64,000 nucleotides of DNA from Paraspadella gotoi (GCA_051294375.1 CM119263.1:26907247-26971246); one strand, 5' to 3'; shown: positions 24,336 through 27,300, counted from the first letter of the stretch. Translations and numbers: made by a program. Notes: generated by a model from the letters alone, not told the origin.

Positions 24336-27300
24336 CTAAACATTAAAGACGAGATTGGCCCCCAAGACCAATTCTCTATTTTCCATCTTGAGTTCCGTGT
24401 TCGCAATTTCGATCAATCCGCCTTCGATGTTCGGAATCTCCACGCCTCTTTTCCCGAACTTGTTCAACGCGACCAATCCCCAACGCGAAGCCGCCGCGCG
24501 GACCAAACTGGAAGTGGAAAACCAAAGAGCAATGTTTTGAGTGGCAGTGGCAGTGTTCTCTTATGAGAACAAAGATAAGTAAATTCGAAAAAGATCAGGT
24601 TAAAAGAGTTAAAAGGTATGGTATATTAGAATTATATTTACACCGTAATAGTTAAAACTGACTTTTGAAATTGCTGTTCTTGCTCCGGCTGCACCGTCGG
24701 TCGAATCACTTCAACGCGCACGAGAGGCGAGGAAAATTTGAACATTAAACGTCTTGCGTCCGAGGAGAGCGTCGGCAACGCGGTGATCTGGATGGAAAAA
24801 CATAGTTAACATAGTAAACATAGTAAATGCGAAATTCATTCAATCTATCAATATATTAATCAAGTAATTAAGCAATAGTAATCAATATTTTAATCATTTA
24901 AACAATCAATCAATCTATTGTTCAAACAATCTTTCTCTCTCTCTCTCTCTCTCTCTCTCTCTCTCTCTCTCTCTCTCTCTCTCTCTCTCTCTCTCTCTCT
25001 CTCTCTCTCTCTCTCTCTCTCTCTCTCTCTCTCTCTCTCTCAATTCTCTCTCACCGTGGCGTTGACGTGGAGACGGAACATTTCGATGTCCCCGCCGCCG
25101 ATGACGACAGAGGCGTTACCGATTCGGAGAGCGAGACCTCTGGCGTCGGAGAATGACATCGTTGGCGCCTCGAAAGTGTTGAAGGTGAAGTAGAGATTTC
25201 CCACGGTGCAATTGGGTCTACCTTTGCAGAGTTTGTCTTCTAGAAAAACAATTTGGGGGGGATATACTATTTTCCCCAGTTGTTCGTTTTTTCTTCAAGT
25301 TTTTACTAAGTTTTTAAAAGTGAAGATCGAACCTGAAATTTCTTTTAAGTAGTTAAAAATATTTCGAAAATTAAGTTTAAACTTACTCTTGGTTTAATAG
25401 ATGTAGTTTTTTATGCATTTTGCTAGTTTTCTTAGAATTTTAAATTTCTTATTTATTTCAAACAATTTTACACATGTCCTACCAAAAAAAAGGGATCATT
25501 GTACCAAGAAATTCCCGGATGTTGGCAAAGTCGAGGATGTCACCGACGGAGTAAGTCTGCCTGCCGATCCCCTTCAGGTGCGCCGAGTGGAGAAGTGAAT
25601 TCGCCACGAAGTCACTGATCACCAAGTAAATATGTTTGGTCCTGCCGAAAGGTAGGTTCAGCTCGGGAGAAGAAAAGGGAAAGTTTGCGACCGTGTCGTG
25701 TTCGGGCTGAACTTCCCCGCGGAATCTGGAGAGACAAAGGGTAAGTAAGTTTTTAACTTTTTAAACATTTTAAACGTAATATTTGGATTAACTTATTAAA
25801 CAAAATAAATACATACAAAAACCGCCATAAAATAGGTAACTGTTTTTCTATTTATTGTAACCTGACTCCAATCACCTTGACCGACCGACCACCAAAACCT
25901 GAGTTTCGTGAAACCGTTGTAATAGACGGGGTCCAGCAGCCCGTAATCGGCCCTAAATTTCTGATCGAGAATGTCGAAGTCGACGCTCGTCTTCATCTTG
26001 GGAAAAATCTCGTTCGTCCATTGGTGAAGCTCACGACCAATCATCGCGCAGATTTTCGGACGCAGCAGATTTTCGAGGTCTCGCTTGAAGACGTCTGCCG
26101 ATGGAAATCGCTTAACGACTACTATCTTTAAACCTCATTTAATGGTCCGACCCGAAAAGTCCCTTCGCCTCCACGGTGCGTCCCTGGTTCAACGTGACAT
26201 GCCCAGTTTGAGCGTGTCAATGACAGGAGACGATAACTAAGAGTCAGATGGTTCTACTCCCGTCGGATCACAGGCAATTCTCATTGCAATATAAGACTAT
26301 GTTATCAGTGGAATTGCCTGTGAGAGCCGGTTGCAGAGTATCTCATGAACTGGCGTAGAGGCTGCAGGCCATAAGTATCGCCTCATGTCGCTGTCATATT
26401 TAAACTGATCCCGTCGTAAGCGTCAACTCTTAGCCGGAATACAGGAATACCCAGGAAATGAAACAGGGACGCACGGTTGCGTAAACTAAGAAGGGACAAT
26501 GGTGAGGCGGCTTTTCTAGTCGTACTCGTTTTACCGGCAAGAATATTGTAGAGCCAATCGATGACGGTTCCTCCAATTTTGATGTCGATTCCGCCGATGG
26601 AGATGCAATCTGGCGTCATCACCGAAGGCGGAAGAGGATCTAATTTGCCTGAAAAGGTTCGTGGGTCGCGTTTATGTACTCTTGGCTGTCTCTATATTAT
26701 CTCTGTCTCTCAGTCTTGGCTCAATGTTCTGTATTTCTGTTTTCCATTCCGTTATGTTTTTTGTTCAGTTTTCTTTTTCTTTTTTTTTCAGTTTTCTTTT
26801 TTTTTCTTTCCGTTTTTGTATTTGTCAATCTTATGTCAGCCTGTATTTTTAACTGTCAGTTTTTTTTGTCTTGTTGTAGTCTGTCTTGTATTTTGTCTGT
26901 CATTTTGGGTGTTTTCACTAATTTATAAGCCTGTCTGTCCAAAAAAAAAAAAAAACTTGCCTAACCTCCGCTCGACGTCGGCCTCAAATTGACGTCTAAT
27001 CGAAGTCCGTGGAACCACGCGGTTACGTGACCATCGTGACCGAATCTGAGAAAACCCGCCGAAAGATGGTACCACCAGTCGGACTCGAGCTTGAGGAGGT
27101 TCAAGCTGAACCTGAGACGGAGACCCTGTTGGGCGCGGGCGGGAACCGGATGTAATTGAATGATTGCTTGTAGTATCCTCCAACAGAGCGTCGTTTCGTA
27201 ACATAAATTCAGCCCTTTCTCTGTTACCGAATTTGTCGGCGTGATGCCCGAAGGACCGGGATCCATCCGTAGCAGACGGTTGTTCCTCAAACTGTAATTG

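Follow-up and report, generated by a model that had tools for sequence, protein, structure and literature searches.

A 440-base intron of Paraspadella gotoi probably consists of two decayed repeat copies in opposite orientation and not of a new ribozyme fold

Results

The intron, its host gene and the paralog

The window, a 64-kb stretch of the Paraspadella gotoi genome analysed here at full length, contains a gene on the minus strand with an intron of 440 nt (Table 1). To judge by its gene structure, the host would be an invertebrate animal. The gene was placed in the LBP/BPI/CETP family by PF02886, which matched one exon at an E-value of 1e-4, below the curated cut-off, and an exon of the tandem paralog at 5e-6. 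Pfam gave no match for four of seven exon pieces in one search and for three of three in another, and a PDB search with one paralog exon returned nothing significant.

In run X9, presumably an RNA run, a 3003-nt contig skipped the intron exactly, with CT..AC at the ends of the skipped segment, and skipped the two introns adjoining it on the left as well; the body of the intron had no cover in this run. DNA contigs of run X1, which may be the source of the window, and of run X4 read through the same positions. The segment is removed from the host transcript by GT-AG splicing on the minus strand.

The sequence-only reading had described the intron as GC-balanced amid AT-rich introns, which was borne out by a GC content of 0.48 against 0.25-0.33 in the neighbouring introns, the limits of some of which are off by 1-3 bases. 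Its remark that the equivalent intron of the paralog is ordinary was equally sound: that intron is 177 nt long, AT-rich and unstructured, and lies at the same codon in the same phase. Because the paralog has an intron at this codon and phase, the host intron appears to be older than its present content; the position of the intron is ancestral.

Table 1 Coordinates of the intron, its parts and the related repeats, counted from the first base of the window.
Feature	Position	Strand	Basis and remarks
Spliceosomal GT-AG intron, phase 1, LBP/BPI-family gene	26095..26534	-	Contig skip, end bases, Pfam on exons
Equivalent intron of tandem paralog, without the element	22399..22575	-	Same position and phase
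Left unit (armPlus), diverged copy antisense to host gene	26100..26290	+	Alignment to F2a; outer limits approximate
Right unit (armMinus), diverged copy on transcribed strand	26300..26528	-	Alignment to F2a, multiple alignment; outer limits approximate
Left unit, degenerate type-P5 core	26192..26255	+	General-acid position 26210 not A; alignment, pair counts
Right unit, degenerate type-P5 core	26357..26419	-	U-A-A site 26402-26400 and G-A 26415-26414 kept
11-bp helix, word common to both units	26176-26186 with 26464-26474	.	Pair probability 1.0, both strands
13-bp hairpin, meeting point of the 3' tails of the two units	26268..26323	.	Alignments, pair probabilities
Proposed pseudoknot pair ctaagagt	26237-26244 with 26426-26433	.	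Off homology register, probably chance
Piece of right unit recurring at other loci	26441..26479	.	33-39 nt, 3-6 differences
F2a, family reference, near-perfect predicted type-P5 twister motif	9025..9272	-	Descriptor 24/26; Rfam twister-P1 18.8 bits
F2a predicted twister core	9142-9080; P5 9151-9146 with 9076-9071	-	
F2b, intronic, predicted twister with three core positions changed	33998..34214	-	88% identical to F2a; descriptor 21/26
F2c, predicted twister with general-base position changed	4834..5060	+	82% identical to F2a; descriptor 21/26

The predicted fold

The whole intron had been read as a nested multi-helix structure with a potential pseudoknot, and all eight helix pairs named in that reading were found in place. 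Comparison of folding energy with shuffled sequences, which the same reading had proposed as a check, supported the fold: against dinucleotide shuffles the MFE had a z-score of -5.48 on the plus strand and -4.04 on the minus strand, and 0 of 100 shuffles folded as well on either strand. Four perfect helices of at least 8 bp were present where 0.95 were expected, a number reached by 0 of 200 shuffles, and two of at least 11 bp where 0.04 were expected. Shorter helices were near chance, both at 7 bp or more (7 against 4.1 expected; 27/200 shuffles) and at 6 bp or more (23 against 16.2; 10/200). Taken one by one, only the helices of 11 and 13 bp exceed chance, and only these two had confident pair probabilities on both strands. 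The gtcccttc helix had a pair probability of 0.98 on the minus strand and 0.05 on the plus strand; the corresponding values were 0.30/0.01 for acgacta, 0.50/0.01 for cctca and 0.12/0.21 for tgacag. The proposed pseudoknot is not supported, being a single 8-bp match that is out of register and of a length to be expected about once by chance, and the crossing pair had a probability of 0 on both strands in a nested model, which cannot form pseudoknots.

The intron was then set beside the rest of the window. Among 42 GC-matched 440-nt tiles (10 shuffles each, plus strand), one had a lower z-score than the intron, and the best-folding control tile contained a copy of the F2 repeat described below. 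The two tiles between which the intron is divided into halves had z-scores of -1.5 and -0.9 only. When the halves were folded alone the z-scores were -2.2, -1.1, +1.0 and +1.6, against -4.8 for the whole intron in the same comparison. In isolation a half thus gains little or nothing over its shuffles, and the fold signal comes from the pairing between the halves. Aligned globally with each other, the halves were identical at 112 of 199 positions (56%).

A repeat family with a predicted type-P5 twister

The F2 repeat is about 250 nt long and has three copies in the window, which are 79-88% identical with a GC content of 0.56-0.58. Passages of PMC5408937 describe three types of circular permutation of the twister ribozyme. 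Read as a permuted twister of type P5 (Rfam clan CL00120), F2a fits 12 of the 12 core bases and 12 of the 14 pairs, both pseudoknots included, and shows T1, T2, P2, P3 and P4 together with an open P5, arranged in the order given in excerpts of PMC5408937 and PMC5113685. The descriptor used for this comparison agrees with the Rfam consensus line; the best of 160 intron shuffles scored 21 of 26 against 24 for F2a.

F2a differs from the known type in that its P1 is a hairpin of 2-3 bp. Its Rfam score also stays under the gathering score: against twister-P1 the whole repeat gave 17.1 bits (E 0.67) and the core alone 18.8 bits (E 0.048), where 67.2 bits are needed, and there was no row for a P5 model. 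Nested pair probabilities for P2 and P4 were about 0 even in F2a, hence this measure does not discriminate. No Rfam family reached its gathering score anywhere in the 64 kb, and in a pattern test the exact hammerhead core was absent from the intron and from the three F2 copies. A covariance model, R2, did not find a sixth copy; its hits on the two intron halves are circular, as the halves were included in the model. F2 is a dispersed non-coding repeat with a predicted self-cleaving motif, in which it resembles a retrozyme: its three copies lie within 64 kb, next to the two intron halves, and a piece recurs at other loci.

Homology of the intron halves to the repeat

Each half of the intron resembles the F2 repeat in its sequence, the two on opposite strands. 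Against F2a, the left half aligned at 26132-26286 on the plus strand (87/149 identical, score 31.8) and the right half at 26415-26304 on the minus strand (66/112 identical, score 28.4). Neither score was reached by any of 1000 shuffles, the best of which gave 22.6 and 24.6, respectively. Identity of F2a to either half is thus about 58%. On the wrong strand the halves scored 13.6 and 11.4, with a null mean of 12.4. Hairpins inflate such alignment scores, as is seen from the score of 24.8 that F2a gave against its own reverse complement.

These values depend in part on the gap costs. The first alignment, with loose gap costs, gave P-values of 0.005 and 0.015 with F2a and of 0.02-0.34 with F2b and F2c (200 shuffles), and the stricter costs were chosen after this result. 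Under the stricter costs, 3-8 of 1000 shuffles scored as high as the halves did with F2b and F2c, so that these two copies lend weaker support than F2a. When five scoring schemes were compared with 504 real window-strands, the left and right halves were equalled by 0/0, 1/0, 18/18, 0/0 and 0/0 of them; the scheme that fails is +1/-1 (18/504).

When the unit was divided into parts, the signal for both halves lay in the twister core, with 0 of 516 null windows as good. The 5' part of the unit supports the left half (4/516) and the tail supports the right half (2/516), and the central part fails to align (98/516 and 111/516). In an nhmmer search of the 64 kb, the left half was the best non-self match and the right half the third, behind a reverse-strand match on F2b. 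The E-values of the halves were 0.25 and 2 for the whole window, and 0.0016 and 0.014 for the intron alone. In a multiple alignment the units were colinear over nearly the whole distance between the splice sites; the right unit has about 40-45 additional bases, which precede its twister core.

Over the 65 core positions, all three sequences agreed at 27, F2a agreed with the left half only at 11 and with the right half only at 8, the two halves agreed only with each other at 12, and none agreed at 7. Pairwise, the left core matched the right at 39 of 65 positions, and F2a matched the halves at 38 and 35. The core identities are star-like; therefore there is no excess of agreement between left and right.

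The perfect blocks of the fold appear to be mostly words conserved in the family that face each other: 10 bases of the 13-bp hairpin are also present in the tail of F2a. The recurring piece of the right unit contains the 3' side of the 11-bp helix, and was found with different flanks in at least nine other contigs, from four runs of the same organism. One of these contigs had a depth of 380 against 17.7 for the locus contig, although depth is no copy number. No second whole copy of the intron element was seen in the window, nor, at 80%, in the four runs, and no clean target-site duplication, autonomous partner or other two-unit copy was seen in the window or the contigs.

State of the two embedded twister cores

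Both intron halves show the type-P5 skeleton in register, and both lack key bases or pseudoknot pairs. The left core matches the twister at 8 of 12 core bases, with the general-acid A changed, and retains 1/3 of T1, 1/2 of T2, 4/4 of P2, 4/4 of P4 and 4/7 of P3. The right core matches at 9 of 12, both catalytic bases among them, and retains 3/3 of T1, 1/2 of T2, 2/4 of P2 and 4/7 of P3; two of its L4 positions differ. According to excerpts of PMC11662667 and PMC5113685, twisters without the general acid almost never cleave, those with faulty pseudoknots cleave less, and faults in the stems are tolerated.

In the register derived from the sequences, each half retains 15 of the 22 twister pairs. 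Of 12 pairs changed on both sides, 9 can still form, and the majority of these double changes occur in one half only. A covariation score computed from only five related sequences was reached by 3 of 500 shuffles, and pair retention had P-values of 0.006-0.03 under a plain null and of 0.02-0.14 with transition bias. There are hints here that both lineages may once have folded as twisters.

Both embedded twisters now look broken, with P3 lost in both. P3 of the right core had a probability of 0, also in the nascent prefix, and a fold of the full intron on which P2 and P4 of this core were imposed was about 16 kcal/mol less stable. The blind twister descriptor gave 18 and 19 of 26 for the halves, within the shuffle range of 17-21 (n=160), and R1, a covariance model built from the three young copies, did not match the intron at E<=10. 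The halves would thus be twister relics by homology, short of the full set of core bases and of the two pseudoknots. The idea in the sequence-only reading of a ribozyme in the history of the intron is nevertheless favoured by these data, as the halves appear homologous to a repeat with a predicted twister.

Discussion

Origin of the intron

Our preferred explanation, which we regard as probable, is that the intron is an old tail-to-tail inverted pair of twister-bearing repeat copies, and that its fold comes from their mutual pairing. Such an inverted arrangement is typical of Penelope-like elements. The F2 family is probably retro-mobile, presumably by retrotransposition, and younger single copies lie elsewhere in the window. 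The two units may come from different subfamilies, or may go back to one very old inverted event. They would have been inserted into a pre-existing intron and would have replaced almost all of its AT-rich sequence, after which both ribozymes would have decayed. The rod may mask any remaining ribozyme activity, so that the host mRNA would be spliced and not cut. At present the element probably has no function beyond that of a tolerated intron.

The inverted homology of the halves would explain the nested helices without a single selected multi-helix RNA. The sequence-only reading was right that the intron is not an ordinary relic of terminal inverted repeats (TIR); its proposal of one selected RNA gives way to two inverted homologous units, which explain the nesting better.

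Alternative explanations

The fold might instead be under selection now, the rod aiding splicing despite a weak pyrimidine tract or silencing the sense twister, or occasional cutting tuning an immune gene; we consider this unlikely. On the transcribed strand the outer helices acgacta and cctca are preferred; with an offset of about 20 nt from the F2 register, neither is explained by homology. The pyrimidine tract has 8 of 15 positions against 9-13 in five other introns. The sense-strand core, as noted, has kept T1 and the two catalytic bases; according to PMC11662667, faults in the stems are tolerated by natural twisters, and structure-dependent introns reportedly exist (PMC4691745). The paralog, however, lacks the element and does without it, and P3 of the sense core does not form in the predictions while its P2 and P4 are costly. 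The end-to-end path takes 22 steps against 12.9 in shuffles, hence there is no special bridging, and G-U pairs favour neither strand (21 against 18).

One of 16 variable sites falls in the intron, which makes up 26% of the compared stretch (P 0.05), but P is 0.17 once clustered variants are merged, and run X7 has no cover of 26241-26349. Perfect helices had been taken as a sign of selected structure, and for the 11-bp and 13-bp helices the excess over chance stands; the clustering of half-half matches into perfect blocks is not clearly above chance, being marginal by three statistics (P 0.24, 0.04 and 0.09). Selection on the long-range helices is not shown by these data. A presently selected fold would be compatible with an origin from an inverted repeat.

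An integrated viroid-like element is another explanation to which we give a low probability. The intron would be the DNA copy of one symmetric element, with twisters of both polarities that co-evolved and are mutually masked in the rod; it would be integrated and excised whole by splicing, and circular RNA relatives of it may exist. Metatranscriptomic circular RNAs carry matched twisters in both polarities, and the geometry and size of the intron match those of such symmetric RNAs, for which an excerpt of 10.1101/2022.07.19.500677 gives 218 clusters with both-polarity twisters, one of 494 nt. The changes that keep a pair by altering both sides are mostly private to each half, which fits separate selection and not one decayed duplicate, and the pair of units takes up nearly the whole intron between its splice sites. 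A weak hint is that pieces of the family are present in run X9, which is without the neighbouring introns.

Units of single polarity with common flanking parts in the same window are, however, a simpler source. The contigs with the 33-39-nt piece diverge from the intron locus on both sides, the halves show no excess of identity with each other and their G-U pairs no strand bias, both cores look broken, and terminal redundancy is absent. The intron sequence is chromosomal in runs X1, X4 and X7. No relative was found in the viral, metagenome, phage and plasmid collections: pattern scans of viral contigs gave 0 matches for three patterns, a 17-mer scan of metagenomes gave 96 matches, none beyond 31 bases and all taken as chance, and blastn of phages and plasmids gave no match. 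By homology the intron would have a both-polarity layout, but neither motif passes a blind search. It is equally improbable, in our judgement, that the intron is a chromosomal two-polarity twister element in a further sense, namely an inverted retroelement dimer, spliced out whole, in a family with intact two-unit members that make circles of both strands.

It is very unlikely that the intron is a worn-out MITE or foldback DNA transposon, with nested helices that stem from its long terminal inverted repeats. The symmetry does run inward from the ends, with halves 56% identical, and one piece is multi-copy. Yet what the halves match is the inner part of another family, one of single units with a predicted twister motif; the multi-copy piece is internal with flanks that continue as family sequence, and no TIR with a target-site duplication was found; the foldback reading is already largely refuted.

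A divergent RNase P/MRP RNA, telomerase RNA, or group I or II intron hosted inside the intron deserves just as little credence, the echoes of RNase P/MRP and group I heard in the sequence-only reading being a CR-I-like word at 26154 and a group I R-like word (one mismatch) at 26111, both on the strand opposite the host transcript, with no CR-V, group I S element or group II D5 within one mismatch on either strand, an Rfam search of the intron that gave only a hairpin-level snoRNA match of 22.5 bits against a cut-off of 40, plain GT-AG boundaries and a part that is multi-copy.

Other candidates were judged by eye, namely HDV-like, hairpin and pistol ribozymes, group II introns, an IRES, U6, tRNA-SINEs and Helitrons, and a required part was missing in each; among the candidates considered by eye, only hammerhead and group II D5 were pattern-tested.

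Relation to known systems

Among known elements, F2 invites comparison with retrozymes. As described in excerpts of PMC7229834 and PMC7761336, animal retrozymes are tandem repeats of 150-400 nt with type I hammerheads, and part of 10.64898/2026.07.22.740005 links them to Penelope-like elements. Like the metazoan non-LTR and plant LTR retrozymes in passages of PMC7229834, PMC7761336 and PMC8781251, F2 is short, non-coding, dispersed, structured and often intronic, and has a predicted internal self-cleaving motif. Retrozymes in those passages have hammerheads, and the animal ones are tandem with a GC content under 45-50%, whereas F2 would have a twister, is single, has 56-58% GC and has fixed ends. 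A stricter definition, hammerhead plus tandem copies or an LTR pair, thus does not cover F2. The table in the available text of PMC8781251 lists only hammerheads for retrozymes, and an inverted pair of units is not described for retrozymes in the excerpts of PMC7229834, PMC7761336 and PMC8781251.

Twisters in animal genomes have been tied to retrotransposons (in passages of PMC8501958 and PMC7761336). In Schistosoma mansoni, Perere-3 / RTE non-LTR retrotransposons have twister variants at their 5' ends, as an excerpt of PMC8501958 reports, and F2, with a predicted twister in a probably mobile repeat, shares with Perere-3 the tie between twister and mobile element in an animal genome. The Perere-3 motif, as given there, is of the P1 type, stands at the 5' end, adjoins the target-site duplication (TSD) and lies ahead of an ORF, whereas the predicted F2 motif is of the P5 type and internal, in a repeat with no ORF.

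The intron itself resembles the symmetric viroid-like cccRNAs described in a section of 10.1101/2022.07.19.500677, which are about 450-500 nt long, with one twister per strand and a self-complementary branched rod. Those are circular RNAs with twister-P1, whereas the intron is chromosomal DNA, is spliced and has two degenerate motifs. Neither P5-twister repeat families nor inverted twister pairs within animal introns came up in searches of openly licensed PubMed Central papers and bioRxiv.

If the intron is a mere relic, it warns that two old repeat copies can give rise to nested helices with a strong z-score even where the fold is not selected. The window would also present a retrozyme-like repeat family in which a predicted type-P5 twister replaces the hammerhead. 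Lee and Koonin, in a passage of PMC8781251, propose that viroids escaped from retrozymes and regard the intermediate as a major missing step. Inversion of a one-ribozyme element such as F2 would give a rod with a ribozyme on each strand, a route that the intron may illustrate, and symmetric replication needs exactly such a second ribozyme. Should the two-polarity element prove true, it would be the missing intermediate between a retrozyme and a viroid-like replicon, in a nuclear genome of the animal type.

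Dispersed copies of a repeat with a twister motif

A repeat of about 250 nt carrying a type-P5 twister motif is dispersed in the window, and among its three copies the motif was near-perfect in F2a. This copy appears to be intronic and in sense orientation, the gene strand being judged from open reading frames, and is possibly flanked by an 8-bp target duplication with one mismatch.

Positions of the features in the window
Feature	Position	Strand	Remark
F2a	9025-9272	-
F2b	33998-34214	-
F2c	4834-5060	+
Kinase/KEN open frame	13492-17601	-
LBP/BPI paralogs (tandem)	about 21000-23850; 24340-27670	-
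Shared intron piece	26441-26479
AT-rich tandem unit, ~1.6 kb	29988-31589; 31641-32990
Hammerhead-core-like words	30588; 32192	+	candidate
Folded tile	43561-44000		z -2.4
Folded tile	44881-45320		z -3.5
Local duplication	38869-41263 / 49672-51862		76% identity
Local duplication	55908-59068 / 60241-63256		87% identity; with a GC-rich short tandem array

Genes and other folded segments

The LBP/BPI paralogs largely share their intron positions. The long kinase/KEN frame encodes leucine-rich repeats, a kinase domain, a ribonuclease 2-5A (KEN) domain and, likely, a membrane span, a predicted receptor-like architecture of IRE1/RNase L type. The hammerhead-core-like words fall within the two copies of the AT-rich unit. 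Two 440-nt control tiles, in a region without clear genes, folded better than their shuffles; neither contained a twister match.

Extent of the repeat family

Three copies within 64 kb suggest that the F2 family is large. The piece shared with the right unit of the LBP/BPI intron was also found in contigs from other loci (runs X1, X4, X7, and X9, the last presumably RNA-type), whose flanks are closer to each other than to the intron locus. This mutual likeness points to a further subfamily, represented in the RNA-type run as well.
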